A stretch of DNA of 64,000 bases from an uncultured Candidatus Saccharibacteria bacterium (GCA_964618845.1 CAZUCU010000001.1:468-64467), one strand, 5' to 3'; counted from the first letter of the stretch, positions 709 through 24,361 are shown. Program-made: numbers and translations. Notes: generated from the sequence alone by a model not told the origin.

Positions 709-749
709 AATCTGTATCTCTTAATTTCTATCTGTTATAATATACTCAA

Positions 750-2009
750 ATGGAAATTGAATTAGGAAATTTATTTGCTGATACTTTTGATTTTATCTTT
801 TTCATATTGCCAATAGCTTTACCTATTATTTTAATTTGGATTAGTTTTGATTTTTTTATTGAATATAAAAGAAAAAAATTTTTAAATTCTTTAGAGTGGA
901 TTTTATTGGAGATTGTTCCTCCTGCTGATGTCAAAAGATCACCTATGGCAATGGAGTTGTTTCTTTTGGCGTTGTATCAAACATCGGGTGAGGGTGATTG
1001 GTATGCAAAATATATTGAAGGAAAATTTAGAAGTTGGTTTTCTTTGGAATTGGTTTCTTTGGGTGGGGTAGTAAAATATTTTATTAGAACAGAAAAGAAA
1101 TACAAAGTTATAATAGAAACAGGATTATATGCACAATTTCCAGGTATAGAAATATATGAAGCAAAAGAAGATTATACAGATGGTTATTATTATGACGAAA
1201 ATAAATTTGAACTATTTGGTTTTGAACTTAAACTCACTAAAGCGGATCCGTATCCAATTAAAACTTATGTTGATTATAAATTAGATTCTGAGCAAGAAGA
1301 TGAATTTAAGGTTGATCCAATTTCTCCTGTTTTGGAATTCTTAAATGCTGTTAAACCAAAAACCAATGTATGGATGCAAATAATAATTAGAGCACACAAA
1401 GAAGAAGATTTAGATACAGATAAATGGTTTCCTGCTTTATCCAAGAAAAAAGACAATTGGAAAGAAGAAGCTAAAGATGAAATCAAAAAAATTAGAGAGG
1501 AATCCTTTTTTGAAATAGAAGAAGGGAGTGGCGATAAAAAAACTAAGAAAAAAAGCGCACAACAAACCCCGGGGCAAAAAGAAACTATCTCTGCTCTTGA
1601 AAGAAGCATCTCTAAATTTGGTTTTGATGTTGGTATAAGAATGATTAATATTTCTGCAAAGGAGGATTTTGACAAAGGAAATAATGCAGGAATGCTTGGT
1701 TCTTGGAAACAATATAATTCTCCCAATCTAAATGGCTTTAAACCTGGTTATATTACTGATTTTGATTGGTGGTATCAGGATCCATTTAAAAAGAAATTAA
1801 AAAAAATTAAAAAGAATATATTAGAAGCTTATAAAGATCGAAATTATTTTTGGAAGAGAAATTATAAAGGTGAAAAAAGACAGCACTTTGTTTTGAATAC
1901 CGAGGAGCTTGCAACAATATATCATTTTCTTGGAAGGGTTACAGAAGCTCCTTCTGTTGCAAAAGTAGAAGCACGGAAAGTCCCTCCTCCTAATAATTTG
2001 CCGATATGA
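750..2009 (+). CDS. Hypothetical membrane protein: N-terminal TM helices and a Lys/Glu-rich C-terminal region.
   Basis: 419-aa uninterrupted ORF in an AT-rich genome where stop-free runs are rare. Hydrophobic segment FFILPIALPIILIWISF. Preceded by a TCTGTTATAATA promoter-like motif 7 nt before the ATG. Confidence 0.5.
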   Translation: MEIELGNLFADTFDFIFFILPIALPIILIWISFDFFIEYKRKKFLNSLEWILLEIVPPADVKRSPMAMELFLLALYQTSGEGDWYAKYIEGKFRSWFSLELVSLGGVVKYFIRTEKKYKVIIETGLYAQFPGIEIYEAKEDYTDGYYYDENKFELFGFELKLTKADPYPIKTYVDYKLDSEQEDEFKVDPISPVLEFLNAVKPKTNVWMQIIIRAHKEEDLDTDKWFPALSKKKDNWKEEAKDEIKKIREESFFEIEEGSGDKKTKKKSAQQTPGQKETISALERSISKFGFDVGIRMINISAKEDFDKGNNAGMLGSWKQYNSPNLNGFKPGYITDFDWWYQDPFKKKLKKIKKNILEAYKDRNYFWKRNYKGEKRQHFVLNTEELATIYHFLGRVTEAPSVAKVEARKVPPPNNLPI

Positions 2010-2986
2010 AAATTATAAAAATTTCAAAAATAAAAAATTTATTTTTGAAAAATAAAAAAGAAATTTTTTTTGTATTTTTGTTTTTAGTATTATTTTTTTG
2101 GATTTATATAACTGATATTCCAAATGGTTTTAAACCAAACGTTGTAATAATTATAGAAGAAGGAGAGAATTTAAAACAAGTAGCCGAAAAGATAAAAGAA
2201 AGTAAATTGATTAGATCTAAGACACTTTTTAATATCTTTTTAATTTTGCAAAACAAAGATAAAAATATTGTTTATGGAGAATATTTATTTGACAAACCAA
2301 GTAGTGTTTTTGAAATAGGAAAAAGAATTACAAATGGGTTTTTTGGGTTTCCCTCCAAAAGTGTTACCCTGAAAGAAGGTTTTACCTTAAAACAAATGGC
2401 TTTTGTTTTAGATAATAATTTTCCCCACTTTGATTACGATTTATTTTTGGAAAAAACCTCTGGTTTTGAAGGTTTTTATTTTCCTGATACCTACATATTT
2501 CCAGAAAATATAAAGACAGAAAAAGTAATCGAAACAATTCAAAATACTTTTCAACAAAAGATGACTGAAATAGATCCACTACTTGTTGAATCAAAAAATT
2601 CTTTGGATGAAATAATTATTATGGCTTCAATTGTTGAAAAGGAAGCAACAGCAGATGGTAGACAAGAAGTAGCTAATATTCTATGGAAAAGAATTGAAGA
2701 AAAAATGCCTCTTCAAGTCGATGCTAATTTTGTGTATTCAATTGGAAAAAATACTTTTGAATTAACAAAAAATGATCTAAAAGATAAAAATAATCTTTAT
2801 AATTCTTACATTTATTTGGGGCTTCCACCAACTGCAATATCAAATCCAGGATTGGAATCTATAAAGGCGGCGGCAAACCCACAACCAACAGAAAATCTTT
2901 TCTTTTTGACAGGAATGGATGGGGAGATGTATTATGCCAAAACTCATGAAGAGCATATAAAAAATAAACAAAAATATTTGAATTAA
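2006..2986 (+). CDS. mltG: Endolytic murein transglycosylase MltG (YceG family)
   Basis: N-terminal TM. A YceG-like C-terminal region with the LPPTAISNPGLESIKAA segment typical of the MltG catalytic domain. 326 aa. Confidence 0.75.
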   Translation: MKIIKISKIKNLFLKNKKEIFFVFLFLVLFFWIYITDIPNGFKPNVVIIIEEGENLKQVAEKIKESKLIRSKTLFNIFLILQNKDKNIVYGEYLFDKPSSVFEIGKRITNGFFGFPSKSVTLKEGFTLKQMAFVLDNNFPHFDYDLFLEKTSGFEGFYFPDTYIFPENIKTEKVIETIQNTFQQKMTEIDPLLVESKNSLDEIIIMASIVEKEATADGRQEVANILWKRIEEKMPLQVDANFVYSIGKNTFELTKNDLKDKNNLYNSYIYLGLPPTAISNPGLESIKAAANPQPTENLFFLTGMDGEMYYAKTHEEHIKNKQKYLN

Positions 2987-2992
2987 ATTCAA

Positions 2993-4078
2993 ATGGATAT
3001 AGAAAATAAAAAAGTTTTAGTAGGTTTATCGGGAGGAGTAGATTCGTCTGTTGCTTGTTTGTTGCTCAAAGAACAAAAATATTCTGTAGAAGCTGTATTT
3101 ATTAAAGTTTGGCAACCTGATTTTATTGAATGTAATTGGCGAGAAGAGATGCGAGATGCAATGCGAGTTTGTATTCAGCTTCAAATCCCTTTTCATTTTT
3201 TAGATTTAGAAAAAGAGTATAAAAAGAGGGTTGCGGATTATTTTATAAACGAATATAAAGCAGGTAGGACCCCAAATCCAGACGTAGTATGTAATAAATA
3301 TATTAAATTTGGTCACATGTTTGATTATGCTAAAAAAAATGGATTTGATTTTGTGGCTACAGGACATTATGTTAGAAATCTAAAAAATAAACTTTTTCGT
3401 GGTAAGGATTTAGACAAAGACCAAAGTTATTTTTTGTGGTCGCTTACCAAAAAAAGATTAAATAAGATTTTGTTTCCAGTAGGAGATTTAAATAAAGAAG
3501 AAGTTAGAAAAATTGCAAAAAAACATAATTTATTCAATTCTAAAAAAAAAGATTCGCAGGGTATTTGTATATTGGGCCCAATTAATATGAAAGATTTTTT
3601 AAAAAAATATATTGATGTCAAAAAAGGTGATGTTTTAGATAAAAGTGGTTCAATTATAGGAACGCACGAAGGTGCAATTTTATATACTATTGGTGAAAGA
3701 CATGGATTTACAATCGATAAAAAACATAAGAGTTCGAGTGATAAAACCCTGTATGTAATAGAAAAAGATGTGGCAAAAAACATAATTATTGTTTCAACGA
3801 GAAACGAGAAGCGAGAAGTAAGAAATATTGAATTGAAAGATGTTTCGTTTATAGATAAAGAAGTTGAGGGAGAAATAGAAATTCAAACAAGATATAGACA
3901 AAAGCCACAAAAAGGAATTTTATTAATAGATAAAAGGGAGAAGCGAGAAGTAAGAAGTAAGAAGTGGAAATTAGAAGCAAATTTTGAAGAAGACCCAGCC
4001 GTTGGGCAATCTGTTGTTTTCTATAAAGGCGATGAGTGTTTAGGTGGAGGAATTATAGATAAAATATTTTTTGAATAA
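2993..4078 (+). CDS. mnmA: tRNA-specific 2-thiouridylase MnmA
   Basis: PP-loop motif VLVGLSGGVDSSVA at the N-terminus. Conserved GHY and cysteine-containing segments of MnmA. 361 aa. Contains in-frame insertions derived from GAGAAGC repeats (EKREVRN and REKREVRSKK). Confidence 0.85.
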   Translation: MDIENKKVLVGLSGGVDSSVACLLLKEQKYSVEAVFIKVWQPDFIECNWREEMRDAMRVCIQLQIPFHFLDLEKEYKKRVADYFINEYKAGRTPNPDVVCNKYIKFGHMFDYAKKNGFDFVATGHYVRNLKNKLFRGKDLDKDQSYFLWSLTKKRLNKILFPVGDLNKEEVRKIAKKHNLFNSKKKDSQGICILGPINMKDFLKKYIDVKKGDVLDKSGSIIGTHEGAILYTIGERHGFTIDKKHKSSSDKTLYVIEKDVAKNIIIVSTRNEKREVRNIELKDVSFIDKEVEGEIEIQTRYRQKPQKGILLIDKREKREVRSKKWKLEANFEEDPAVGQSVVFYKGDECLGGGIIDKIFFE

Positions 4079-4082
4079 ATTT

Positions 4083-4706
4083 TTAGGTTCTCGGATCTGT
4101 TTTTTTCCATTCAATAATTTTTCCAGCTTTTATTTCCATTTTATCTGCTTTCCTTAAAAATTTTTTATTTTTTGGGGGGTAAAATCTTTTATGTGGACTT
4201 TTCTCTAATGCCTCTGCAATCTCAAAAAGTTCTTTTTTACTTGTTATCCACTTAGTTCCAAACCTTCTCATATCAAAGGGTAAAGAATAACTTTCTAAAA
4301 TTTTTTTACCGGTTTTGATATCAAAATATTCATGAAAATAAGAAAGTGCTAATTCTCTGATTGTCTTATAAACGGGATCACGAAATCGAAGAGTCGCATG
4401 ATTAGTTTTGCTTATTGCTCCCCAATGTCCATTTATCTTATAAATAGCCAAAGTATGGTCATCTCCACAATCAGATTTTAAGTCTAATATATAAGATTTT
4501 TGCTTATTAATCCAAAAACATAAAACAGCAAACATTGCTCCCTCCAAACAATGCGCTTTATTTTTTTGGAGAACTCTTTGGGGTGACATATAAGTTTCAC
4601 CATCTTTTTCCCAATTTATTGGTATGGTATCCAAAAAACTTTGAATTTTGATCGGAGTATTTATTTTTTTTAAAATTTTAATTTCTTCTTTTGTAAGTCC
4701 AAACAT
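4083..4706 (-). CDS. Putative transglutaminase-like cysteine peptidase domain protein
   Basis: Cys-His-Asp arrangement resembling the TGc core: KAHCLEGAMFAV, GDDHTLAIY, RFRDP. Confidence 0.4.
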   Translation of the reverse strand: MFGLTKEEIKILKKINTPIKIQSFLDTIPINWEKDGETYMSPQRVLQKNKAHCLEGAMFAVLCFWINKQKSYILDLKSDCGDDHTLAIYKINGHWGAISKTNHATLRFRDPVYKTIRELALSYFHEYFDIKTGKKILESYSLPFDMRRFGTKWITSKKELFEIAEALEKSPHKRFYPPKNKKFLRKADKMEIKAGKIIEWKKTDPRT

Positions 4707-4745
4707 ATATTGATGTTAACAAAAAATCATTTATACTAAAAGTCC

Positions 4746-5144
4746 ATGAAAAAATATGAGCCAAAGAATTTTAAGCTAAAAGTAAAGAAATCAAAAACCG
4801 GACTTGGTCTTTTTGCTGATGAAAATTTATCAAAAGGTCAATGTGTAATTGAATATGTTGGTAGAGAGATTTCTGAAAGAGAAAAATATACAAGTAGAAG
4901 TAAATATTTATTTGAAATAAATTCAAAGATAACTATTGATGGGCAAGATAGAAAAAACAAAGCTAGATATATTAATCATTCTTGTCGCCCAAATTGTGAA
5001 ATTAAAATAAAAAATAAAAAAATCTTTGTAATGTCTCTTAAAAAAATAAAAAAGGGAGAAGAATTAACTTATGACTATGGAGAAGAATATTTTGATGAAC
5101 ACATAAAACCCAAAGGTTGTAGATGTTGCAAGTGTTATAAGTAG
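4746..5144 (+). CDS. SET-domain protein (putative protein-lysine methyltransferase)
   Basis: Canonical SET motifs INHSCRPNC and ELTYDYG. Cys-rich post-SET tail CRCCKCYK. 132 aa. Confidence 0.8.
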   Translation: MKKYEPKNFKLKVKKSKTGLGLFADENLSKGQCVIEYVGREISEREKYTSRSKYLFEINSKITIDGQDRKNKARYINHSCRPNCEIKIKNKKIFVMSLKKIKKGEELTYDYGEEYFDEHIKPKGCRCCKCYK

Positions 5145-5167
5145 AGAGGTTGTTTTTTTCTATTTTC

Positions 5168-5176
5168 TGTTATAAT
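5168..5176 (+). promoter_or_regulatory. Extended -10 element TGTTATAAT, 8 nt upstream of the ATG at 5185 (leaderless-type promoter)
   Basis: TGnTATAAT consensus match. Part of the recurrent TCTGTTA(A/T)AATA motif. Confidence 0.5.
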
Positions 5177-5184
5177 AGCCTTGT

Positions 5185-5661
5185 ATGAAGAAAGGCGTAT
5201 TTATTTTCGTTGTTTTATTAATAATTTCGATTTTATTTATAATTTTTTCTCTATTAAAATTTCAAAAAAATAACAAATTAGAACCCGTATCTAGAGAGGA
5301 AGTACAAAACATCACCGAGGAAGAACCATTTGAATCTTTGGTTGTTAAACATCAATATAAAGATAACAAACATATTTTTGTTGGGGATTTACAATTACCA
5401 ACACCCTGTCATGAATTTGAAGTAAAGATTGAAGACACAAATGACCCAAATATTAAAAATATAAATTTTTTTACTAAACAAAATAATGAACAAGAAACTT
5501 GCGCTCAAATAGTAACACCAAAGGCTTTTCGTATTGAATATACAGGACCGGAAAATTTAGAATTTAAAGCTTTTATAGACAAAATTCCACGAAGATTAAA
5601 TATTTTTAATTTAGCACCAGATGTAGATATTGATGAATTTGAATTATTTATAAAGGGGTAA
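5185..5661 (+). CDS. Hypothetical membrane-anchored / secreted protein
   Basis: N-terminal hydrophobic segment VFIFVVLLIISILFIIFSLL followed by a hydrophilic domain with two Cys. 158 aa. Confidence 0.5.
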   Translation: MKKGVFIFVVLLIISILFIIFSLLKFQKNNKLEPVSREEVQNITEEEPFESLVVKHQYKDNKHIFVGDLQLPTPCHEFEVKIEDTNDPNIKNINFFTKQNNEQETCAQIVTPKAFRIEYTGPENLEFKAFIDKIPRRLNIFNLAPDVDIDEFELFIKG

Positions 5662-5664
5662 ATT

Positions 5665-6501
5665 ATGGAAGTAACAAAAAGAGATGGTACAAGTGAAGAA
5701 TTTAATGAACAAAAATTTTTGAATTCTTTGGAAAAAGCTGGTTTCTCAGATTTAGAAATTAAAATTGCCTTAGAAAAAACAAAGGAATCTTTATACGATG
5801 GTATTACTACTGATTTAATTTATGAAAAAGCATGGGAAACATTAAAAAATATCCAAAATGTTGAACCCATTGTTAAATATTCTCTTAAAAGAGCAATTTT
5901 GGAACTTGGACCTTCTGGTTTTCCTTTTGAACAGTTGGTTGCAAAAATCTATCAAGAATTAGGTTATAAAACCTTAACCGGAATTATGCTTGAAGGAAAA
6001 TGTATAGATCATGAAATAGATGTTATCGCTTATAAAGAAAATGAGCTACTTTTGATTGAAGCTAAATTTCACAATGAACAGTCTATGAAATCTGATACTA
6101 AGGTTGCCCTTTATGTAAAAGCACGTTTTGATGATCTAATTAATATAAAATTTGATATAGACGGTAAAAAAAGAAAGATGACAAGAGGGGTTTTGATTAC
6201 CAATACTGGATTTACTAATAATTCTAAAAAATATATAAAATGTGTTGATACTTTTGATATGATAAGTTGGTCTTATCCAAAAGATCAGGGTTTATTAAAG
6301 ATGATAGAAGATCACCACATTCATCCAATTACTTCCATTCCTAAATTATCTCAAAGGGAAAAGGGAGAGTTAATAGAAGCAGGATATATTTATTGTAAAG
6401 ATATTTTGAAAAATCCAAACATCCTTGATCAATTTAAAATTGTTGGTGAAAAGAAAAATGAAATTTTGAAATTTGCTCGAATAATTTGTAACGAAAAATG
6501 A
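5665..6501 (+). CDS. ATP-cone domain fused to an Mrr-like (PD-(D/E)xK) restriction endonuclease domain
   Basis: N-terminal VTKRDGTSEEFNEQKFLNSLEKAGFS matches the ATP-cone fold (as in NrdR and RNR). C-terminal CIDHEIDVIAYKENELLLIEAKFH has the D...E-x-K signature of Mrr_cat nucleases. Confidence 0.6.
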   Translation: MEVTKRDGTSEEFNEQKFLNSLEKAGFSDLEIKIALEKTKESLYDGITTDLIYEKAWETLKNIQNVEPIVKYSLKRAILELGPSGFPFEQLVAKIYQELGYKTLTGIMLEGKCIDHEIDVIAYKENELLLIEAKFHNEQSMKSDTKVALYVKARFDDLINIKFDIDGKKRKMTRGVLITNTGFTNNSKKYIKCVDTFDMISWSYPKDQGLLKMIEDHHIHPITSIPKLSQREKGELIEAGYIYCKDILKNPNILDQFKIVGEKKNEILKFARIICNEK

Positions 6502-8225
6502 CACATCAAAAATTGCGACAAAAATATTTTGATTTTATAAAAAACAAAGGTTTTGAAATTGTTCCGTCTGCATCACTTGTTCCAGAAAATGATTCTTCGA
6601 TTTTATTTACAACAGCCGGCGTTCAACCGCTCGTTCCATACCTTATGGGAGAAAAACATCCTAAAGGAAACAAACTTGCAAATATTCAAAAATGTACACG
6701 AACAATAGATTTAAACTCAATCGGTGATGATACCCATCTATCTTTTTTTGAAATGATAGGTTATTGGTATTTGGGAGAAAGCAAAAAAAGTCTCAAAAAA
6801 AAGGGTATAGAGACCACTTATGAAATGTTTTTTAGTAAAAAATGTTTTGGACTTGATATCAACAAAGCATATCTCACTTGTTTTGAAGGAAATGAAATTT
6901 CTCCGAAAGATGAGGAAAGTGCAAATTATTGGCAAGATTTAGGAGTTGCAAAAGAAAAAATTTTTTATACTGTTGATTCTAATTGGTGGGAAACAGGGGA
7001 AAATGGTCCTTGTGGTCCTGATAGTGAAGTTTTTTATAATATTTCGGGTGAGAATTTGGACATAAAAAGTAAAGAGGATTTTTTGAAAGCAGATAAAGAG
7101 GGGAAGATTGTAGAAATTGGAAACACAGTTTTTATGTTATTTGAAAAAAAAGATGGAAAAATTGTAGGTGAATTGAAACAACAAAATGTAGATTTTGGAG
7201 GAGGGTTTGAAAGACTTCTAATGGTTGTACAGAATAAAAATTCTGTTTACGAAACTGATTTATTTGAATCTCTTGTAAATAAAGTAGGTGGCAATAAAAT
7301 TATAGCCGATCATTTACGAACTTCTGTAATGATAATTTCTGATAAAGTTTTGCCAAGTAATACAGACCAGGGATATATTTTGAGAAGACTTATCAGAAGA
7401 ATTGTTAGATTTGCTAAAGAATTAAACATTAAAAAAGAAAAACTTCTTGAGGCAACAAATGAAATAGTTAAAATTTATAAAGGGGTATATAAAATTTTAG
7501 ATAAAAAAGAACTACATAAATTATTAGAAGAAGAAATAGAAAAATTTGAAAAAACTTTGGAAAGGGGATTAAAAGAATTTGAAAAAATGAGTAAAAATGG
7601 AAGAATCTCTGGTTATGATACTTTTATTCTTTTTACTACCCACGGTTTTCCATTTGAAATAATAAAAGAATTAGCAGATGAGAAAGGAATTTTTATAGAT
7701 GAAGAGGAATTTAAAAAAGAATTAGAAAAACATAGGAAACTTTCCAAAACCGCATCAGCCGGAAAATTTAGAGGGGGTCTTGCAGGAAATAGTGAAATTG
7801 AAATTAAATATCACACCGCGACACATCTTTTAAATGCGGCGCTTAGAAAATTTTTGGGAGATCACATTTACCAAAAGGGAAGTAACATAAACATTGAAAG
7901 ACTTAGGTTTGATTTTTCTCATAATGAAAAAATAGAAAAAGAAGTCTTGGATAAAATTGAAAATCAAGTGAACAAATGGATAAAAGAAAATATTTCAGTT
8001 GAAAAATTAGAAATGTCATACAATGAAGCCAAAAAAATGGGAGCAATTGGTGTTTTTGATGATAAATATGGAGATATTGTTTCGATTTATAAAATTGGAG
8101 ATATTTCGATGGAACTTTGTGGTGGTCCTCATGTTAAAAATACTGGAGAAATAGGGAAATTTAAAATTATAAAAGAAGAGGCATCTTCCAAAGGTGTTAG
8201 AAGAATAAAGGCCGTACTCGAATAA
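6498..8225 (+). CDS. alaS: Alanine--tRNA ligase, short form lacking the C-terminal DHHA1/oligomerisation region
   Basis: Class II catalytic core (FTTAGVQP). Editing-domain motif HTATHLL. CGGPHV near the C-terminus. Only 575 aa. Confidence 0.85.
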   Translation: MTHQKLRQKYFDFIKNKGFEIVPSASLVPENDSSILFTTAGVQPLVPYLMGEKHPKGNKLANIQKCTRTIDLNSIGDDTHLSFFEMIGYWYLGESKKSLKKKGIETTYEMFFSKKCFGLDINKAYLTCFEGNEISPKDEESANYWQDLGVAKEKIFYTVDSNWWETGENGPCGPDSEVFYNISGENLDIKSKEDFLKADKEGKIVEIGNTVFMLFEKKDGKIVGELKQQNVDFGGGFERLLMVVQNKNSVYETDLFESLVNKVGGNKIIADHLRTSVMIISDKVLPSNTDQGYILRRLIRRIVRFAKELNIKKEKLLEATNEIVKIYKGVYKILDKKELHKLLEEEIEKFEKTLERGLKEFEKMSKNGRISGYDTFILFTTHGFPFEIIKELADEKGIFIDEEEFKKELEKHRKLSKTASAGKFRGGLAGNSEIEIKYHTATHLLNAALRKFLGDHIYQKGSNINIERLRFDFSHNEKIEKEVLDKIENQVNKWIKENISVEKLEMSYNEAKKMGAIGVFDDKYGDIVSIYKIGDISMELCGGPHVKNTGEIGKFKIIKEEASSKGVRRIKAVLE

Positions 8226-8246
8226 TCCTGTCTAAATATCTAAACT

Positions 8247-8258
8247 TCTGTTAAAATA
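8247..8258 (+). promoter_or_regulatory. TCTGTTAAAATA extended -10-like motif, 3 nt upstream of the ATG at 8262
   Basis: Member of the recurrent motif family. Confidence 0.4.
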
Positions 8259-8261
8259 TAA

Positions 8262-9350: not shown

Positions 9351-9354
9351 ATTT

Positions 9355-10966: not shown

Positions 10967-11013
10967 AAAAACTTTACAAATGAATAATACTCTGCTAAAC
11001 TACGCATTCATAA

Positions 11014-14221: not shown

Positions 14222-14222
14222 T

Positions 14223-14640: not shown

Positions 14641-14732
14641 ATTCATATTACCAAAATATCTTTTCGAAATTGTTTAGCCCAGTTTGAGATATTGTGATAG
14701 TATGTTTTCAAAGATATTTTGGTAATATGAAT
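14641..14732. promoter_or_regulatory. Perfect 23-bp inverted repeat (ATTCATATTACCAAAATATCTTT ... AAAGATATTTTGGTAATATGAAT) with a 46-nt spacer, between rpsI and grpE
   Basis: Read directly: arms at 14641-14663 and 14710-14732 are exact reverse complements. The spacer contains TTGAGA and TAGTAT promoter-like hexamers. Confidence 0.5.
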
Positions 14733-14748
14733 TATCCTTATTTAAAAT

Positions 14749-15306: not shown

Positions 15307-15310
15307 GTGT

Positions 15311-15339
15311 TTACAAAAACATTTTTTTGTCTTATAATA
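15311..15339 (+). promoter_or_regulatory. Sigma-70-like promoter TTTACA-N17-TATAAT upstream of dnaK
   Basis: Near-consensus hexamers with 17-nt spacing. Followed by GAAGTGAAAAGT and a triple CTTCTCG tandem repeat (15391-15412). Confidence 0.45.
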
Positions 15340-15390
15340 CGCCCACTAATTAATAGCAAGGAGTAAGAAGTGAAAAGTGGGAAGAATTTG

Positions 15391-15412
15391 CTTCTCGCTT
15401 CTCGCTTCTCGC
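15391..15412. repeat. Tandem heptamer repeat (CTTCTCG)x3 in the dnaK 5' region
   Basis: Seen directly. The same GAGAAGC-family motif occurs at 3798-3825, 3946-3970 and 37342-37383. Confidence 0.8.
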
Positions 15413-15430
15413 TTTTAACTTTAAATATAT

Positions 15431-17329
15431 ATGTCAAAAATTTTAGGTATTGATTTAGGAACAACAAATTGTGCAATGGCAATAATGATTGCTGGGAATC
15501 CAGAAATTATTGAAAATACTGAAGGAAACAGAACAACCCCTTCGGTTGTTGCCATATCAAAAAATAATGAGAGATTGGTTGGTCAAACCGCAAAAAGACA
15601 ATCAGTGACAAATCCCAAAAATACAATTTTCGGCATAAAGAGGTTTATTGGTCATTCTCATGACGATCAATCGATTTTAAAAGACAAGGAAACTGTTCCT
15701 TTTGAAATTTTAAAATCTAATAATGGTGGAGTTACAGTAAAAATGCAAAATAAAGAATATCGACCAGAGGAAATCTCTGCTATGATTTTACAAAAATTAA
15801 AACAAGATGCAGAAGCAAAAACAGGAGAAAAAATTACAGAAGCAATAATTACAGTTCCGGCATATTTTAATGATTCTCAAAGACAGGCCACAAAAGATGC
15901 GGGTAAAATTGCAGGACTTGAAGTTAAAAGAATTATTAATGAACCAACGGCAGCGGCTCTTGCATATGGTTTTAATAAAAAGAAAAATGAGCAAATTATT
16001 GTTTTTGATTTTGGTGGAGGAACTTTTGATGTTTCTGTTTTGGAAGTGGGAGACGATGTCATTGAAGTAAAATCAACAGATGGTGATTCTCATATGGGTG
16101 GAAAAGATATTGATCAAAAAATTATAAAATGGATTATTGATGAATTTAAAAAACAAACAGCAATAAACCTTTCTGGTGATCCGCTTGCAATGCAACGACT
16201 TTATGAAGAAGCAGAGAAAGCAAAGATTGAACTTTCAACGGCACAAGAAACCGAAATAAACATTCCTTTTATTGCGTCAGGACCAAATGGACCAGAGCAC
16301 TTGGTTTTAAAATTTTCACGAGCTAAACTTGAAGAATTATCAAATGAATTTATAGAGAGAGCAATTGAAATCACAAAAAGAGCAATGGAAGCTTCTCCAT
16401 TTAAAATTTCGGATATTGATGAAATAGTGTTGGTGGGAGGTCAAACAAGAATGCCAAAAATCCAAGAAGAAGTAAAAAAACTTTTTAATGGAAAAGAACC
16501 AAATAAATCAATTAATCCAGATGAAGTGGTAGCTCTTGGAGCAGCACTTCAGGGGGGGATTATGCAAGGAGATGTAAAAGATGTTTTACTTCTTGATGTT
16601 ATTCCACTTTCACTTGGTATTGAAACACTCGGAGGAGTTGCAACAAAATTAATTGATAGAAATACAACAATTCCTGCATCAAAATCTCAAATTTTTTCAA
16701 CCGCAGCAGACAATCAAACTCAAGTAGAGATCCATATTGTTCAAGGGGAACGAGCAATGGCATCTGACAATAAATCTCTTGGAAGATTTATTTTGGATGG
16801 AATTCCACCAGCACGAAGAGGCATGCCACAAGTAGAAGTTACTTTTGATATTGATGCAAACGGAATTTTGAAAGTTTCTGCCAAAGATAAGGCGACAAAC
16901 AAAGAACAATCGATTAGAATCGAAGCGAGATCAGGTCTTAGTGAAGCTGATATAAAGAAAATGCAAGACGAAGCCACAATACATGCCAGTGAAGACGAAA
17001 AGAAAAAAACACTTATTGAAAAGAAAAATTTGGCAGAGCAAATGGTCTATACTGCAGAAAAAACTTTAAAAGATGGTGAAGAAAAAATTAAATCAGAAAC
17101 AAAAACTGAAGTTGAAGAAAAAATTAAAAATTTGAAAGAAAAATTAAATTCTGAAAATGTTGATGAACTTCAAAAACTTACAGAAGAACTTTCTGCATCA
17201 CTTCAAAAAGCAGGCACAGAGATGTATTCTAACCAAGGTTCAGAGAATAATGCTCAGAGATCAGATAAAAATGACAATGTAAAGGAAGCGGAGGTTGAAC
17301 GCGAAGATAAAAACGACGAAAATAAATAA
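15431..17329 (+). CDS. dnaK: Chaperone DnaK (Hsp70)
   Basis: [24 protein letters not shown] and other Hsp70 signatures. 632 aa. Confidence 0.95.
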
Positions 17330-17345
17330 TTCTATTAACTGATCA

Positions 17346-18221
17346 TTGAAAACCGATTATTTCATGTCAAAAGACTACTACAAAATTTTAGGTATAAACA
17401 AAAACGCTTCCAAAGAAGAGGTAAAAAAAGCTTTTCGCAAACTTGCTTTGGAACACCATCCAGATAAGGGGGGGAGTGAAGCAAAATTCAAAGAAATAAA
17501 TGAGGCATATTCTGTATTGTCAGATGATAAAAAACGTGCTCAATATGATCAATTTGGAACGGCTGATTTTAATGGTTTCAATGCTGGTCAGGGCTTTAGT
17601 GGATTTGATTTTTCTGGATTTGGACAAAATGGACAAGGATTTGAATTTGATTTGGGTGATATTTTCAACCAATTTTTTGGTGGAGGTTTTAGAAGACAGA
17701 GAAAAGGTTCAAACATCCAAGTTGATTTAGATCTTGATTTTAAAGAGTCAATTCTTGGAGTAAAAAAGAAAATTTCTTTTTATAAAAATAGATCTGATAA
17801 AAAAACAGAACTTGAAGTAAAAATTCCAGCAGGTGTTGATAATGGAGAAGTTTTAAAAATTAGAGGAGAAGGAGAACCAATAGAAGATGGCCAACCCGGA
17901 GATCTTTATGTTGCTATTCATGTAAAAACACACCCAAAAATACACAAAAGAGGTGTACATTTAGTTCAAGCCCTTGAAATTTCTATTTCCGAAGCAATTT
18001 TGGGAACCAAAAAAGAGATTGAAACTATAGATGGTAAATTAAAAATTAAAATACCACCAGGATCTAACACAGGCGATATTTTGAAAGTAAAAGGGGAAGG
18101 AGTAAAAATCTCTGAATATAAAAGAGGAGATATGTTAGTTGGAATAAAAGTCAATATTCCAGATAAGGTTTCAGGAAAAGTTAAAAAGATACTTGAAGAA
18201 TTAGATAAAGAAGGTTTATAA
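17346..18221 (+). CDS. dnaJ: J-domain co-chaperone (DnaJ/CbpA-like, lacking the CxxCxGxG zinc finger)
   Basis: J domain with HPD ([33 protein letters not shown]). G/F-rich linker. C-terminal substrate-binding repeats. Confidence 0.8.
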
Positions 18222-18228
18222 TATAATT

Positions 18229-18693
18229 ATGTCTATCGGTTTTTTAACTCTTGATATTATAATTATTTTAATCATTTTTATTGGGTCTTTTATTTATTCT
18301 TTTAATGCAGGAAAAAAAGAAGTTGTAAAATTAATTTTTCCAATTTATATAACTCTTTTGATATTTTCTAATTTAAAATTTTCTGCACTAAAAGATAATA
18401 CAACAATGATTTTAACATTTGTTGTTATTTATTTAATATTAATGTTTTTACTTCGTAAAAATTTTACAGCTCCATCAAATCATTCTGGTAGCAGAAAATT
18501 TTTTGATAGTCTGTTTATTAGTATTGCGGCAGTTTTTATGCTTTTGGTTATTTACTATAAAATATTACCAATAAGTGAATTTTATAATTTAAAACTTCCG
18601 TTTAGTGGATTCTTGATTCAAAAAATCCCTTCTTATATAAGTTTATTAGTTCCAATATTTGCAATATTTATAACCAATAGAAGAGACGACTAA
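18229..18693 (+). CDS. Hypothetical integral membrane protein
   Basis: Four or five hydrophobic helices. 154 aa. Confidence 0.45.
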   Translation: MSIGFLTLDIIIILIIFIGSFIYSFNAGKKEVVKLIFPIYITLLIFSNLKFSALKDNTTMILTFVVIYLILMFLLRKNFTAPSNHSGSRKFFDSLFISIAAVFMLLVIYYKILPISEFYNLKLPFSGFLIQKIPSYISLLVPIFAIFITNRRDD

Positions 18694-18719
18694 CATTTAC
18701 AATAAAAAAGATTAGGTAT

Positions 18720-18914
18720 ATATTTAAAAACGGTATGAAGATTAGATACCATCTGGTTAATGGCGTTCCTCAAAGGAAAAAAGAAGAAGAAATCGAAATC
18801 CGGGGAAAAACGGAAAAATACAAAAAACCTCGGAATCGCCGAGAACGCTTTCGCCACCACCCAAGTGGCAGATTTCTTCCGCATTTTTCCTTTGTTAGGT
18901 AGCCTCCAGTTTGT
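18720..18914 (+). ncRNA. Candidate structured RNA / 5' leader: a GC-rich island relative to flanks, upstream of trpS. Identity unknown.
   Basis: Local GC well above flanks. Ends in a strong intrinsic terminator (next feature). No canonical T-box, tmRNA, SRP or RNase P motifs recognised. Confidence 0.25.
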
Positions 18915-18956
18915 GCCCCACATCATGTCGTCATCAACATGATGTGGGGCCTTTTT
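18915..18956 (+). terminator. Rho-independent terminator: 13-bp perfect stem GCCCCACATCATG / CATGATGTGGGGC, then CTTTTT
   Basis: Seen directly. Confidence 0.8.
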
Positions 18957-19003
18957 AAATAAAAGATATTTTTAAAATACTATTTTTTTGATATGATAAA
19001 CAT

Positions 19004-19972
19004 ATGAAAAGAAAATTAGTTACAGGTATAAAACCTACTGGAAAGCCCCATCTGGGAAATTATTTTGGGGTTTTAAAAAGATTAAAGTCCTATCAAGAAG
19101 AATATGATTGTCGAATTTTTATTGCTGATTTACATGCTTTGACGTCAGTTTCAAACAAAAAAGAATTGGAAGAAAATATTTTTGATTTAATGGTGATGTA
19201 TTTGGCGATTGGTTTAGATCCTTCCAAAACTATCTTGTATAGACAATCAGATATTTCGCAAGTTTCAGAACTCTCTTGGATTTTTGGTTCGCTTGCAACT
19301 ATGCCATATTTAATGAGATCTCATTCATTCAAAGATGCTGAAGCCAAAAATAAAGAAATTAATGTTGCTACTTTTTCATATCCGCTTTTGATGGCTTCGG
19401 ATATTTTGCTTAGTGATGCGGATGTAGTTCCTATAGGCAAAGATCAAAAACAGCACGTTGAAATCACCAGAGACATGGCAAGAAAATTTAATCAAACTTT
19501 TGGAGAAACCTTCAAAGAACCAGAGGAATTAATAGAAAAAGAAACAGAAACAATTATTGGAACAGATGGACAAAAAATGAGTAAAAGTTATGACAATGTT
19601 ATTCCGCTTTTTGCATCACCTGACGAAATTAAAAAAATTGTAATGAGTATTCCAACCGATTCCAAAGGTATTGATGAGCCAAAAGATCCTGATAATAACC
19701 TGCTTTTTCAAGTTCATTCCATGATACTTATGAGTAATGCTGATAAAAGGGCCCTGCGGGCCAAATATGAGGCTCCTGGGCTTAGTTATAAGGTAGCAAA
19801 AGAAGATTTAATACGAGATTTGGACGCTCTTATTGCACCACTTCGTGCAGAAAAACAAAAACGGGAAGGGAATAGAAGTAAAGTATTAAAGATTTATAAA
19901 AAAGGAGGAGAGAAAATGAAGAAAATTGCGGAGAAAAAGATGGTAGAAATTCGATCTAAAGTTGGGTTGTAG
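19004..19972 (+). CDS. trpS: Tryptophan--tRNA ligase
   Basis: Class I motifs: PTGKPHLGNY (HIGH-like) and KMSKS. 322 aa. Confidence 0.9.
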   Translation: MKRKLVTGIKPTGKPHLGNYFGVLKRLKSYQEEYDCRIFIADLHALTSVSNKKELEENIFDLMVMYLAIGLDPSKTILYRQSDISQVSELSWIFGSLATMPYLMRSHSFKDAEAKNKEINVATFSYPLLMASDILLSDADVVPIGKDQKQHVEITRDMARKFNQTFGETFKEPEELIEKETETIIGTDGQKMSKSYDNVIPLFASPDEIKKIVMSIPTDSKGIDEPKDPDNNLLFQVHSMILMSNADKRALRAKYEAPGLSYKVAKEDLIRDLDALIAPLRAEKQKREGNRSKVLKIYKKGGEKMKKIAEKKMVEIRSKVGL

Positions 19973-19973
19973 A

Positions 19974-20070
19974 CCGTCATTCCCAAAACTATATAGAGAA
20001 TCTACACTTAGTAAAATAATGCTTAAAAAGCACGGACCTCCGATATTGCTTCGGAGGTGACAACTCTTTT
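19974..20070 (+). repeat. Copy A of a roughly 100-bp hairpin-containing repeat element (the second copy is at 45774-45863)
   Basis: Shared blocks CGTCATTCCC, ATGCTTWWAAAG, AAGCRYGGACCYCCGATANNGCTTCGGRGGTGAC. The hairpin at 20036-20058 carries compensatory T-A to C-G changes relative to copy B. Confidence 0.55.
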
Positions 20071-20150
20071 ATATTTCTTTGTTTTAAAACTTCATAAATT
20101 CTTCAACATTTCTTTATCAGGATTTAACCTCTTTTTGATAGCATTGTTCT

Positions 20151-20537
20151 ATGCTAAAGGATTTTGATAGTTGGAATCTAATAAAGAAAAGAATAGACCT
20201 AGAAAATAGGGTACCTATTAGGGTTGGTGAGATATTTTGGTGTAAGCTTGGTCTAAATATTGGTGTTGAACAGAATGGAAACGAAAAAGAATTTACTAGA
20301 CCAGTTATAATTATAAAAAAATTCTCAAATCAAATTGTTTTAATTGCTCCATTAACAACCAAACCCCATAAAGGCAATTGGTATTTAGAAAAAGATATTC
20401 TTGGAATTAAACAACAAATAATCCTAAATCAAATCAAACCAGTTGATGTTAAAAGGTTAACAAAAAGTTTGGGAGAGATATCTGAAAAAGAAGTTCAACT
20501 AATATTATATGAGTATTTTAAATTGCTTATTCTTTAA
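20151..20537 (+). CDS. PemK/MazF-family toxin-like protein (putative endoribonuclease) with no recognisable antitoxin partner
   Basis: GEIFWCKLGLNIGVEQNGNEKEFTRPVIIIK ... IAPLTT resembles the MazF/PemK signature (GxIxxxDxxP...RPxxVxS...xxPxTS). 128 aa. Confidence 0.5.
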   Translation: MLKDFDSWNLIKKRIDLENRVPIRVGEIFWCKLGLNIGVEQNGNEKEFTRPVIIIKKFSNQIVLIAPLTTKPHKGNWYLEKDILGIKQQIILNQIKPVDVKRLTKSLGEISEKEVQLILYEYFKLLIL

Positions 20538-20693
20538 TGTATAAAGACCGCTTGTGGCGGTCTTCGGCTGGGTTACCCCAAACTGTATGTGTCACTATTA
20601 TAACAAAATTATTTTGTCAAAGTCAACAAATGCCCCACAATGGCGAAGCCATCGCGGGGCTATAAATCACAAAATTTTTTGGGCAAAACTTGG

Positions 20694-21659
20694 ATGGATT
20701 ATGTGGGGGAGAGAGAGTTGAAAATTGAAAAACAAGGATTTTTGTGGTATTTTATAGATATGAAAAAGTGGTTTGGCGGTATTATTTTGATAATTATTTG
20801 TATAGCTATTTGGGGTTATATTTTTTATTTACAAAAATCTAAATTTGATTTGGCTTACGTAGACACAAAAGGTCAGGTTTGGCTCAAAGATTTGAATGGT
20901 TTTAAAAAAGACTTGATGGTTGTTGATGAAGCTGATGAGCAAGACACAAAAATAGATACTCCTAGAACTATAAGTGTTTCACCTAATAATAAAATGATCG
21001 CAGTAGATTTATTTAGACAAAATAACTCCGAAAAAGGCGTTGCAATCTATGACATAAAATCAGCAAATATTAAATTTATAACTGAAGGTGAAATAGGTAA
21101 TTTTGCATGGTCCCCTGATTCTAAGTATCTTCTAATGAATTCATATACATATGCAGACAAAATCTACTCAATTGAGTTTGGCGAATTAATTGAATTTCAG
21201 GAAGCTCCAAGATATAGACAAGACGGTGATTACTCAGCAGAAAAGGCATTTTATCGTATGGTAAGTTGGGGAGAATCTGACCGAGCTTATTTTATGAAAA
21301 TAAATTTAAATGATAATAGCCAACAAACTGTCTTATTTAATTTGATTACAAAAGAAGAAAAAGTAGTAGAAGATCTAAAAGAAACATCTTTTGATAAATT
21401 AAAACTAGCTTTTGGTTCTTTCGAGCCAAAACTTCTTGACTCTATGGACAATACCAAAAGTCCAAATGAACCTTTTTATCGTCGTCAAGAAAGACCAGGA
21501 AATAAAACACTTTGTGGATTTGAAAATAAAATAATCTATCCAACAAAATCTTTGAAAGAAATTTTATACAGAGATTATTCTTTGGCTATTTTTGATACTA
21601 AGACACAGAAAACCAAAAGAATCGTTGAAAACATAATAGACTATTCTTGTTTTTGGTAG
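20694..21659 (+). CDS. Membrane-anchored protein with TolB/PD40-like beta-propeller repeats. Start uncertain (20640, 20694 or 20760).
   Basis: TM GIILIIICIAIWGYIFYL. Repeats such as SPNNKMIAVDL and WSPDSKYLLMNSY are typical of PD40 blades. Confidence 0.45.
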   Translation: MDYVGERELKIEKQGFLWYFIDMKKWFGGIILIIICIAIWGYIFYLQKSKFDLAYVDTKGQVWLKDLNGFKKDLMVVDEADEQDTKIDTPRTISVSPNNKMIAVDLFRQNNSEKGVAIYDIKSANIKFITEGEIGNFAWSPDSKYLLMNSYTYADKIYSIEFGELIEFQEAPRYRQDGDYSAEKAFYRMVSWGESDRAYFMKINLNDNSQQTVLFNLITKEEKVVEDLKETSFDKLKLAFGSFEPKLLDSMDNTKSPNEPFYRRQERPGNKTLCGFENKIIYPTKSLKEILYRDYSLAIFDTKTQKTKRIVENIIDYSCFW

Positions 21660-21869
21660 GAGTGGGAGCTGTGTCCCGCGTAACGAAGTGTAGTGGGATT
21701 GAAAATTAAAGAGAAAGAAAGTATAAATATAACTATGAAAAAAACCAAAAAAATGAATTTATAAGAGTTACCACAGAACTTAAAAACGGAGTTTTCGTAA
21801 CTTCAACTTCTACAATTGACCGTTAACGAACCCTTCCATTTGGGCTTATTCCTTCAAAATATAAATTTT

Positions 21870-22118
21870 TTATTTAGTCCATTTTCTAAAAGATTTAATC
21901 ACTGCACCCAAAAGACTTCCTAATATATAAACTACTATAAAACTTATTATGGCTGGAGGAAGAACGGTTGAAATAATAATCTTATAATAATTCCATAGAT
22001 TCTCAGCACAAGAAAATTCACAAATTATTGTGCTGTCATAAACAATATATTTTCTTCTTAATTCTAACTTTCTAAATGCCCAAATGTCTGTTAAAATAAG
22101 CCTATAAATATGACACAA
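21870..22118 (-). CDS. Possible small membrane protein
   Basis: 82-aa ORF with a hydrophobic segment. No homology recognised. Could be spurious. Confidence 0.2.
   Translation of the reverse strand: MCHIYRLILTDIWAFRKLELRRKYIVYDSTIICEFSCAENLWNYYKIIISTVLPPAIISFIVVYILGSLLGAVIKSFRKWTK
22087..22098 (+). promoter_or_regulatory. TCTGTTAAAATA extended -10-like motif upstream of scpA
   Basis: Member of the recurrent motif family. Confidence 0.4.
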
Positions 22119-22123
22119 GATTA

Positions 22124-22861
22124 ATGACAGAAAATTATAAAATCAAAACCGAAAAGTTTGAAGGACCCCTTGATATACTTTTGGATATGATTGAGAGGAG
22201 AAAACTTCTAATCAATGATTTTTCTCTTTCAAAAATTACAGATGATTTTATAGATTATATTTCTAATTTAGGAAAAATATCCGCTTCCAAGATTTCAGAT
22301 TTTTTGGTTGTTGCTTCAACTCTAATTTTAATTAAATCTCGGTCTCTTTTACCCACTTTAACATTAGGTGGAGATGAAGAAAAAGATATACAAGATTTAG
22401 GGATAAGATTAAATATTTTAAAAATTATAAAAGAAATTTCAATTTTTGTGGAATCGTCTTTTCAAAAGATAATCAGATTCCCCAAAAGACAAATCAAAAT
22501 CTTAAAACCAAAATTTTCACCCACAAAAGAATTAAACTCTCATAACATGAGAATTATAATGCTCAGTATCATAAATACATTTCCTTCCTTTGAGGAAAAA
22601 AAAGAAGCAAGAATCAAAAAAACTATATCTTTAGAAGATACAATGAATAAGTTGATAAACAGAATAAGAAGTCATACCTCGATGTCTTTTTTTGAATTTT
22701 CTGGAAAAAAGACCAGAACAGAAAAAATAAATATTTTGGTAAGTTTCTTGGCTGTGTTAGAGTTGGTAAAAAGAGGCCTATTAAAGGCTAATCAAAGTAA
22801 CAAATATCATGATATTAATCTTGAATCAAACGAAATTAACATACCAAAATTTGGAATATGA
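22124..22861 (+). CDS. scpA: Segregation and condensation protein A
   Basis: N-terminal FEGPLDILLDMIERRKLLINDFSL is the ScpA signature. Followed by scpB. Confidence 0.8.
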   Translation: MTENYKIKTEKFEGPLDILLDMIERRKLLINDFSLSKITDDFIDYISNLGKISASKISDFLVVASTLILIKSRSLLPTLTLGGDEEKDIQDLGIRLNILKIIKEISIFVESSFQKIIRFPKRQIKILKPKFSPTKELNSHNMRIIMLSIINTFPSFEEKKEARIKKTISLEDTMNKLINRIRSHTSMSFFEFSGKKTRTEKINILVSFLAVLELVKRGLLKANQSNKYHDINLESNEINIPKFGI

Positions 22862-23403
22862 GTGAATTAGATAAAAAAATAGAAGCATTAATTTTTTATA
22901 AAGGGGAAGAAATAACTTTCAAAGAGCTTTCAAATATTTTGGAAGTCAGCGAAGAAGAAATAAAAAATGGCGTTTTAAATATCAAAGAAAAAAATAAATA
23001 TTCAGGGATAAAAATTTTGACAACAGACAATTCGGTTATGTTTACAACAGGTGAGGAAATTGCTCCAATAATAGAAAAATTAGAAAAAGAAGAATATGAA
23101 AAAGAATTATCCAAAGCATCACTTGAAACTTTAACAATTATTCTTTATCGCGGACCAATAAAAAAAAGCATGGTTGATTATATAAGAGGAGCAAACTCTC
23201 AATTTACTCTTCGAAATTTATTAATCAAAGGTTTAATCGAAAAAGAAACGGATCCCAAAGACGAGAGGTCTTATCTTTATAAACCAACAATTGAACTTTT
23301 GCGATATATGAATATTTCTAATATCAAAGAATTACAAGAATATAAAGAAATAAATGAAAAAATTGATAGTTTTATTAAAAATTCAGAAAAAGAAAATGGA
23401 TGA
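22858..23403 (+). CDS. scpB: Segregation and condensation protein B
   Basis: IEALIFYKGEEITFKELSNIL ... LETLTIILYRGPIKKSMVDYIRG are the ScpB winged-helix blocks. Overlaps the scpA stop. Confidence 0.8.
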   Translation: MSELDKKIEALIFYKGEEITFKELSNILEVSEEEIKNGVLNIKEKNKYSGIKILTTDNSVMFTTGEEIAPIIEKLEKEEYEKELSKASLETLTIILYRGPIKKSMVDYIRGANSQFTLRNLLIKGLIEKETDPKDERSYLYKPTIELLRYMNISNIKELQEYKEINEKIDSFIKNSEKENG

Positions 23404-24328
23404 ACAAGAAAAAAAACAGAATAGAGATTTGTTTATACTTTTTTTATTTTTTTTGATTCCGCTTTTGATCCTTGCCTTCTCATTAATAATTAAGAATCCA
23501 AAAAATATAAATGAAGAAGCGACGAATAAAAATCAAAAAGAATATGTTTTTGATACAAAAAATATAAAAGCAGAATCAATATTGGTAACCGAACTTAATA
23601 CAGATAAAATTATTTTTAAAAAAAATGAGAAAGAAAAAAGGGCAATAGCTTCAATAACCAAATTGATGACAGTTTTAGTGGCAAGTGAAAAATTATCAAC
23701 CAAAAATATAAATAATATAAAAATAAATGAAAAACATTTAACGGCCTTTGGAGACTCAGGGTTATTGGTAGGACAAGTATGGAAGGTCAAAGATTTGATA
23801 GATTTTACTTTAATAACTTCATCAAATGACGGAGCAAAAGCCTTAGCATTATCTGCTTTTGAAAATGATGAAACATTATTTGTAAAAAATATGAATTTGT
23901 TTGCACAAAATTTGGGTTTACAAAATACTCATTTTGTCAATGAAACTGGATTAGATTTAATAGATAAAAATGAAGCAGGGGCCCTATCAACAGCAGAAGA
24001 TATTACTAAAATATTAAAATTTATTGTATTAAACGAAACAGATGTTTTTTCTGAATCAACAAAGGGAAATAAGAGGTTGACAGTCGGAGACAAAAATTAT
24101 GAAATATCAAATACTAGCTCTGCCGTTGATATGCTTCCAGGAGCTATTATATCCAAAACAGGGTATACAGACCTCGCAGGAGGAAATTTAGCAATAGTAA
24201 TTGATTTTGGGCTTAATAACCCTATATCCATAGTCATTTTAGGTTCTACAATGGAAGATAGAGATCAGGATATCATTAATTTATACAACCAAACAGCTAA
24301 TTATTATGCTAAAAATATCAGGAAATAA
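23354..24328 (+). CDS. dacA: D-alanyl-D-alanine carboxypeptidase (PBP5/6-like, S11 family). The true start is probably at 23398.
   Basis: SITK (SxxK), SSND (SxN) and KTGYT (KTG) motifs in the correct order. N-terminal TM. Confidence 0.8.
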   Translation: MKKLIVLLKIQKKKMDEQEKKQNRDLFILFLFFLIPLLILAFSLIIKNPKNINEEATNKNQKEYVFDTKNIKAESILVTELNTDKIIFKKNEKEKRAIASITKLMTVLVASEKLSTKNINNIKINEKHLTAFGDSGLLVGQVWKVKDLIDFTLITSSNDGAKALALSAFENDETLFVKNMNLFAQNLGLQNTHFVNETGLDLIDKNEAGALSTAEDITKILKFIVLNETDVFSESTKGNKRLTVGDKNYEISNTSSAVDMLPGAIISKTGYTDLAGGNLAIVIDFGLNNPISIVILGSTMEDRDQDIINLYNQTANYYAKNIRK

Positions 24329-24349
24329 TCTTTAGTTTTTTTTATTTTT

Positions 24350-24361
24350 TCTGTTAAAATA
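24350..24361 (+). promoter_or_regulatory. TCTGTTAAAATA extended -10-like motif, 6 nt upstream of the mraY ATG
   Basis: 19-nt near-identity with the motif at 5161-5179 (TTTTCTGTTAWAATARCCT). Confidence 0.45.

Follow-up and report, generated by a model that had tools for sequence, protein, structure and literature searches.

Among described promoters, the kin of the extended -10 element are the '-16 region' (TRTG) of Gram-positive bacteria and the T-rich promoters without a -35 box of Campylobacter and Helicobacter. A -10 element placed immediately before the gene defines the group C genomes of GeneMarkS-2, in which 25-50% of operons have the Pribnow box 6-8 nt from the start of their first gene (Lomsadze et al. 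2018, PMC6028130). With respect to translation, about half of the 16S rRNAs of Parcubacteria are without an anti-Shine-Dalgarno motif (Tsurumaki et al. 2022, PMC9297842); that study dealt with rRNA, mRNA start regions being outside it, and left open how translation starts. Here we analyse a 64,000-nucleotide stretch (CAZUCU010000001.1:468-64467, the whole of which we call the window) in which the 12-mer TCTGTTAWAATA, an extended -10 element, recurs just before start codons. From the sequence, we find it likely that a near-consensus housekeeping promoter core stands beside the AUG, so that about half of the transcription units would give rise to leaderless mRNAs.

The window has a GC content of 29%, with tightly packed genes and very short intergenic spacers, and holds housekeeping genes for ScpA/B, MraY, FtsW, MurG, ribosome recycling factor (RRF), DnaK/J, ribosomal proteins, aminoacyl-tRNA synthetases, MreB/C and MraZ-RsmH. 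Judging by the names attached to its MraY and AlaS homologues and to 160 related loci (Parcubacteria, Paceibacteria, Paceibacterota, Minisyncoccia, Taylorbacteria, Kaiserbacteria and similar), its source is a low-GC member of the Parcubacteria/Paceibacteria, in the candidate phyla radiation (CPR). We recovered contigs of the same species (identity 99.3-100%), which added only ~10 kb of sequence, as well as syntenic relatives at 69-82% protein identity; a metagenome scan with MraY gave relatives that were all at ≤71% identity, and closer ones were retrieved singly. Sequences other than the window are referred to by L numbers.

The pattern in the window resembles that of the group C genomes (Mycobacterium, Streptomyces, Corynebacterium, Deinococcus) in the position of the -10 element at 6-8 nt, in its association with first genes, ~45% of which are affected in the window, and in the use of ATG. 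It differs in its host, which is a 29% GC member of the CPR rather than an actinobacterium or Deinococcus, in the -10 element, which is TG-extended and without a -35 box, and in the remaining genes, since the other genes of group C genomes use Shine-Dalgarno sites whereas those examined here do not show them. Like the extended -10 (TGn) promoters of sigma-70, the sites have TG one base before TAnAAT, a T-rich tract and no requirement for a -35 box, and T is found at -17 in 82% of sites in the window and 62% in relatives. Unlike TRTG, which has a purine at -16, these sites have T (41%), A (32%), C (27%) and never G (0%) at that position, and the element abuts the start codon. The loss of anti-Shine-Dalgarno motifs in Parcubacteria concerns the same broad lineage, and predicts unused Shine-Dalgarno pairing, in keeping with the lack of Shine-Dalgarno motifs both in the window and across 116 related loci. 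The comparison with related sequences supports well a lineage-wide pattern that would match group C, but with the remaining genes lacking Shine-Dalgarno sites.

Five exact copies of the 12-mer are present on the + strand of the window (at 731, 5166, 8247, 22087 and 24350), as the preliminary description of this DNA had reported. The mean in 100 dinucleotide-preserving shuffles is 0.06 copies, and none of the 100 reaches five. If one mismatch is allowed, there are 14 matches compared with 2.98 expected, two of which lie 5-6 nt from a real start codon (Table 1). The distances to the ATG had also been given correctly (7, 7, 3 and 6 nt for the copies at 731, 5166, 8247 and 24350, and 25 nt for that before scpA), but the reported identity of 17 of 19 nt between 5161-5179 and 24341-24359 is actually 7 of 19, or 16 of 19 once the second segment is moved to 24345-24363, in register with the motif. 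The ATG used is always the earliest possible start of the open reading frame (ORF) or agrees with the starts of homologues, and the N-terminus and length that follow from the mraY start are common to MraY homologues. Each of the five copies has the orientation of the gene that starts after it, and in four the ATG is within 8 nt. The 362-aa protein likely starts at the second ATG, 8265, which is at the usual spacing (7 nt past the hexamer); scpA has a predicted 5' untranslated region of ~19-20 nt that is without a Shine-Dalgarno site. Duplication of a single cassette was rejected as the origin of the copies, because their similarity ends with the T-tract and the motif. The -35-like TCTAAAT common to the copies at 8247 and 22087 was likewise set aside; it is kept at the orthologous 8247 site, but is not general.

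The architecture extends well beyond the 12-mer. When the 60 nt before every gene in the window are read, the element TGnTAnnnT is seen repeatedly, with its end 6-8 nt ahead of an ATG, and Shine-Dalgarno sites are nearly absent. Approximately 20 further genes have this arrangement, with TTTG, TATG or AATG in the place of TCTG, and the five copies together with these ~20 sites all fit TGnTAnnnT, with TG at -15/-14 and a hexamer whose second base is A and whose sixth is T.

The position of the element relative to start codons is far from random. We measured distances for TGNTAWAAT sites on both strands of the window and in 80 related-genome loci. Of the 31 window sites, eleven are followed at 6-8 nt by the opening ATG of an ORF with 100 codons or more, and not one at 9-25 nt; for the 287 sites in the relatives, ATG-ORF starts number 24, 16, 14 and 11 at 6, 7, 8 and 9 nt, respectively, compared with ~1-3 elsewhere. 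Scrambled control hexamers lack a sharp, tall peak at 6-9 nt, and the low, shifted bumps that some of them give are consistent with overlap with real sites. A wider survey of start signals covered the 116 loci that were of sufficient length, out of 167 plus the window. In the 116 loci, a -10 hexamer is found at 6-8 nt before 23% of first-ATG ORFs compared with 5.6% of controls, and an extended -10 element before 9.5% compared with 0.5%; values near the top of the range (33-48% and 22-35%) come from the window together with its closest relatives.

The element also distinguishes classes of genes and of start codons. In the window, it precedes 20 of 44 operon-first genes but only 3 of 25 operon-internal genes (odds ratio 6.1, p = 0.007), and the operon-internal genes are spaced at -23 to +21 nt, which fits translational coupling of downstream genes. 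Among 1,689 pooled sites, ATG is found 119, 63, 39 and 32 times at 6, 7, 8 and 9 nt, while GTG (5, 3, 1 and 1) has at most a faint peak and TTG (1, 4, 4 and 1) has none. Leaderless translation requires a 5' AUG, and the strong peak for ATG, with little for GTG or TTG, fits this need. Shine-Dalgarno-like motifs precede merely 4 of 69 window genes, two of which are in a region of 38% GC beside a transposase gene; in the 116 related loci these motifs are found at 8.1% of starts versus 10.7% of control positions, and thus show no excess. Nor is there a -35 box at these promoters, as the best match to TTGACA averages 2.8 of 6 positions compared with 2.5 for control hexamers (not significant). A classical scan for paired -35 and -10 boxes gave 94 hits versus 95 in shuffles, a lack of excess that is uninformative because the promoters have no -35 box.

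The geometry is conserved even as the sequence drifts. In relatives at 55-82% protein identity, a -10 element is kept 6-8 nt before the ATG of mraY, ftsW, murG, trpS, corA and the S41 protease gene, and likewise at the genes for the DUF8128, 158-aa and 362-aa proteins; for mraY this holds in many genomes of 30-54% GC. In relatives, three tRNA genes have the same element ~10 nt ahead of their mature 5' ends. Its presence before tRNA genes and at a promoter with no ORF indicates that it acts in transcription rather than in translation.

These results bear on several claims of the preliminary description. Position, operon bias, ATG preference, conservation and the tRNA genes all agree with its proposal that a TGn extended -10 element puts the start of transcription at the A of the ATG or beside it, and its expectation of a non-random position is borne out in both the window and the relatives by the peak at 6-8(9) nt before the ATG. 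The restriction to a 'defined gene subset' does not hold, given the same architecture at ~20 more window genes and in related genomes. Comparison of orthologous upstream regions upholds the geometry, but TCTG itself is mostly lost.

From the motif, geometry, operon bias, ATG preference and conservation that we observe, we infer a sequence of steps that leads from transcription start through ribosome loading to coupling. A housekeeping (sigma-70-type) promoter, consisting of a T-rich tract followed by the extended -10 element T-Y-T-G-n-T-A-n-A-A-T, would work without a -35 box. From a hexamer whose end is 6-8 nt away from the ATG, RNA polymerase would start on the A of this codon or within 1-2 nt of it, and the resulting mRNA would have neither a 5' leader nor a ribosome-binding site. 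To translate such an mRNA, the ribosome would bind directly to its 5'-terminal AUG, and coupling or re-initiation would account for translation of the downstream genes of the operon. Within this population of promoters, the five exact copies would be the best-matching, and hence strongest, members, with no extra factor required.

Several points weigh against leaderless initiation as the full account. The position of the transcription start is deduced from geometry only. A search of the window and the fetched loci for a 16S rRNA gene, whose 3' end would hold any anti-Shine-Dalgarno sequence, found none. About half of the operon-first genes are without the element at 6-8 nt, and leaders are needed for genes such as dnaK, grpE, mraZ and scpA; a second mode of initiation that is independent of Shine-Dalgarno pairing is thus also required. 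Where same-strand gaps bear a promoter, their lengths cluster at 34-46 nt (for example 709-749, 5145-5184, 8226-8261, 24329-24367 and 26566-26605), taken up by a T-tract, the extended -10 element and a spacing of 6-8 nt. A recognisable terminator is missing from these gaps, where read-through transcripts are likely to coexist with internal leaderless starts. Finally, the exact 12-mer is commoner than independent positions predict, an excess that a plain consensus covers only if promoter strength is heterogeneous.

This excess is the starting point for an alternative that we consider unlikely, in which the TCTGTTAWAATA promoters are a sub-class, and their genes a regulon, for an alternative sigma factor or a dedicated regulator that reads C(-16) and T(-13); the preliminary description had raised such a regulator for TCTG. 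Among 24 extended -10 promoters of the window, the exact 12-mer is found 5 times versus 1.16 expected under independence (column-permutation p ~0.002), and C(-16) is paired with a pyrimidine at -13 in 6 of 6 cases versus 6 of 16 (p = 0.015). C occupies -16 in ~27% of these promoters, while it otherwise makes up 5-14% of upstream regions. These statistics are post hoc and come from 24 sites only, however, and the -16/-13 association is gone in relatives, both in 262 promoters (p = 0.28) and in the 40 from the closest relatives (p = 0.40). The exact 12-mer is retained at two orthologous sites in L177 (AlaS 76% identical), those of the 158-aa and 362-aa genes, and TCTG is retained in the rpsM promoter in three of four genomes. 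By contrast, TTTG, ATTG, TGTG or ATAG replaces TCTG at the orthologous DUF8128, mraY, S41 protease, ftsW and trpS promoters, just five 12-mers are found in 1.3 Mb of related loci, and the ~10 kb of additional same-species sequence has none. A gene for a protein with Sigma70_r4 and HARE-HTH domains lies directly upstream of the first copy. The genes concerned have no common function (a DUF8128 protein, two hypothetical proteins, ScpA, MraY, RRF, an S41 protease and ribosomal protein S13), and the motif is without dyad or repeat structure beyond the promoter itself. In sigma-70 family promoters the primary sigma factor contacts the -17 to -14 region, which is where the bases of TCTG fall. Most simply, the primary sigma factor would prefer T-Y-T-G-n-TAnAAT from -17 to -7, and the five copies would be the strongest promoters. 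A dedicated regulator for TCTG is unsupported, given the unrelated gene functions and the loss of TCTG at most orthologous promoters.

We regard as very improbable a role for the element at the level of mRNA, as an AT-rich ribosome-binding or standby site other than Shine-Dalgarno on leadered or polycistronic transcripts, such as in the Bacteroidota (GeneMarkS-2 group B). In a genome with no Shine-Dalgarno signal, leadered and internal genes do need another signal, and a read-through mRNA would include the motif in several of the 34-46-nt gaps without a terminator. A translation signal should precede internal genes too, but the element is largely confined to first genes. It is, moreover, a textbook TGnTAnAAT with invariant A(-11) and T(-7), not just an AT-rich sequence; scrambled hexamers give no comparable peak, the spacing of 6-8 nt is that from a -10 element to the transcription start, and the element also precedes tRNA genes and occurs at an ORF-less site with a good -35 box (20597-20626, - strand). 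Chance matches of an AT-rich 12-mer, for which the low GC content and the 409 TAWAAT-like hexamers of the window might be cited, are refuted by the count of five versus 0.06 and by the co-orientation and proximity of the copies to gene starts, and we give chance virtually no weight.

Table 1. Extended -10 elements and related promoters in the window, with the corresponding sites in relatives
Element	Coordinates	Strand	Gene	Position of ATG and other parts	Orthologous sites
TCTGTTATAATA	731..742	+	DUF8128 protein (750-2009)	TATAAT 736-741, TG 733-734; ATG 8 nt past hexamer	L176, L177: TGnTAnAAT retained 8-9 nt before ATG, without TCTG
TCTGTTATAATA	5166..5177	+	158-aa hypothetical protein	Hexamer 5171-5176; ATG 5185, 8 nt past hexamer	L177: exact 12-mer; L175, L176: TGCTATAAT
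TCTGTTAAAATA	8247..8258	+	362-aa hypothetical protein	Hexamer 8252-8257; start ATGATG 8262/8265	L177: TCTGTTATAATA; L175: TTGATATAAT; ATCTAAA upstream in common
TCTGTTAAAATA	22087..22098	+	scpA	ATG 22124, 25 nt away; sole leadered member of the five	L161, L164: scpA directly after trpS, no promoter; L166: TGTTAAAAT 10 nt before ATG
TCTGTTAAAATA	24350..24361	+	mraY	Hexamer 24355-24360; ATG 24368, 7 nt past hexamer	Many relatives: -10 element 6-8 nt before ATG
TCTGCTATAATA (one mismatch)	34816..34827	-	S41/CtpA-like protease	ATG 34810, 6 nt past hexamer	L161, L164: TTTGATATAAT 6 nt before same MKN start
TCTGTTAAAATT (one mismatch)	63908..63919	-	frr (RRF)	ATG 63902, 6 nt past hexamer	Identical across same-species contigs L168-L171
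rpsM operon promoter	10973..11002	+	rpsM	-35 TTTACA (10973-10978), 17-nt spacer, TCTGCTAAACTA (10991-11002); ATG 11014, 12 nt past hexamer; predicted leader ~5-6 nt	Promoter kept in L175, L176, L177
TGATATGAT (extended -10)	18989..18997	+	trpS	6 nt before ATG 19004	TGGTATTAT, TGCTATTAT or TGTTATTAT 6-7 nt before ATG
TGATAGCAT	20136..20144	+	MazF/PemK-like toxin	6 nt before ATG 20151	
TGGTATTTT	20745..20753	+	ORF 20604-21659	6 nt before ATG 20760, probable true start	
TGTTATAAT	25449..25457	+	ftsW	7 nt before ATG 25465	TGATATAAT or TGCTATAAT 6 nt before ATG
TGGTAGAAT	26591..26599	+	murG	6 nt before ATG 26606	L161, L164: TAGTATAAT 6 nt before ATG
TGATAACAT	37386..37394	+	dnaB	7 nt before ATG 37402; two TTCTCGC heptads upstream	
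TGATATGAT	43348..43356	+	194-aa hypothetical protein	8 nt before ATG 43365	
TGTTAACAT	4713..4721	-	207-aa hypothetical protein	6 nt before ATG 4706	
TGTTATAAT	41023..41031	-	rmuC	8 nt before ATG 41014	
TGATATAAT	43020..43028	-	232-aa hypothetical protein	6 nt before ATG 43013	
TGATAGAAT	46408..46416	-		6 nt before ATG 46401	
TGGTATAAT	54805..54813	-	Class II (D/K/N) aminoacyl-tRNA synthetase	6 nt before ATG 54798; 15-nt gap beside greA stop	
TGCTAAAAT	57362..57370	-	84-aa ORF upstream of PBP2 gene	6 nt before ATG 57355	
TGATATAAT	58230..58238	-	mreC	6 nt before ATG 58223	
TGTTAATAT	60693..60701	-	Class II aminoacyl-tRNA synthetase (tRNA-synt_2b)	7 nt before ATG 60685	

A number of further features were noted in the window. 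Within the 3' end of murG, TGATACATT (27706-27714, + strand) lies 8 nt before the gltX ATG at 27723, and L161, L164 and L166 have kept it; the sequence may serve as an internal leaderless promoter, or merely reflect coding constraint. The dnaK gene is an exception to the leaderless rule (15310-15431, + strand), with a canonical TTTACA-17-TATAAT promoter at 15310-15338 and a leader of ~90 nt. In this leader, a purine-rich arm pairs with three tandem copies of TTCTCGC (15392-15412) to form a long hairpin with a minimum free energy of -29.5 kcal/mol (z = -5.3; 0 of 200 shuffles as stable), which could be a thermosensor or a processing element of the heat-shock operon. The GC-rich heptad TTCTCGC is present in 13 copies in the window compared with 2.7 expected, and, besides the three in the dnaK leader, two are directly upstream of the dnaB leaderless promoter (37363-37383, + strand); it is a better candidate for a regulator site than TCTG.

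The ORF-less promoter on the - strand (20538-20634) is a strong one and consists of TTGACT, 18 nt and TGTTATAAT, with the -10 hexamer at 20597-20602. Downstream of it are ~60 nt that include the hairpin GACCGCCACAAGCGGTC and a T-run, and that run antisense into the 3' end of the MazF/PemK-like toxin gene (20151-20537). The product may be a small or antisense RNA; an Rfam search at ~20600 (-) gave no credible family.

The region 44197-48298 has 38% GC compared with 29% elsewhere, and contains an rve-family transposase gene (44197-45078, - strand) together with hypothetical genes. Two of the hypothetical genes, with ATGs at 47576 and 48298, have GGAG/AGGAG at 6-7 nt from the start, and no other good Shine-Dalgarno motif is present in the window. 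The region is probably a foreign mobile insertion that retains the translation signals of its donor.

Just upstream of the first copy of the 12-mer is the gene for a conserved 342-aa protein with an N-terminal sigma-70 region 4 followed by a HARE-HTH domain (window 25-708, + strand; full gene in L174, 8931-9959), in which no sigma region 2 was detected. The gene is syntenic in L176 and L177. At 60728-62173 (- strand), between the genes for the tRNA-synt_2b synthetase and an M50 protease, are genes for an N6/N4 DNA methyltransferase and an HNH endonuclease, apparently a restriction-modification-like pair. In L169 and L170 the next called gene follows the M50 protease gene at only 20 nt, and in L168 it is the methyltransferase gene that follows, at ~110 nt; thus, the methyltransferase/HNH insert may be absent from the L169 and L170 strains.

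The mechanism proposed here is already known; its dominance in a low-GC lineage of the CPR without Shine-Dalgarno sites was not found in the searchable literature. A search for work on leaderless genes in CPR, Patescibacteria, Parcubacteria and TM7x gave nothing relevant in the searchable literature, which leaves out most subscription journals, so that a prior description is possible. The clade may even have dropped Shine-Dalgarno-guided initiation wholly, with about half of the units leaderless by means of extended -10 promoters that lack a -35 box, downstream genes translated by coupling, and initiation mainly at a 5'-terminal AUG, a proposal that we hold to be slightly better than evenly balanced. 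If true, it would provide a functional counterpart to the reported loss of anti-Shine-Dalgarno motifs in Parcubacteria, and would add a lineage of low GC content and ultra-small genomes to the bacteria rich in leaderless genes.

In practical terms, gene callers that assume Shine-Dalgarno sites would misplace starts in these genomes, and the spacing of 6-8 nt between the -10 box and the true ATG offers a direct rule for the annotation of starts in the Parcubacteria/Paceibacteria. The module of promoter and start, ~40 nt in length, would be usable for gene expression in these organisms or for reading operons from sequence. Leaderless initiation would also give a concrete, testable answer to how translation starts in a lineage reported to be without the anti-Shine-Dalgarno motif.

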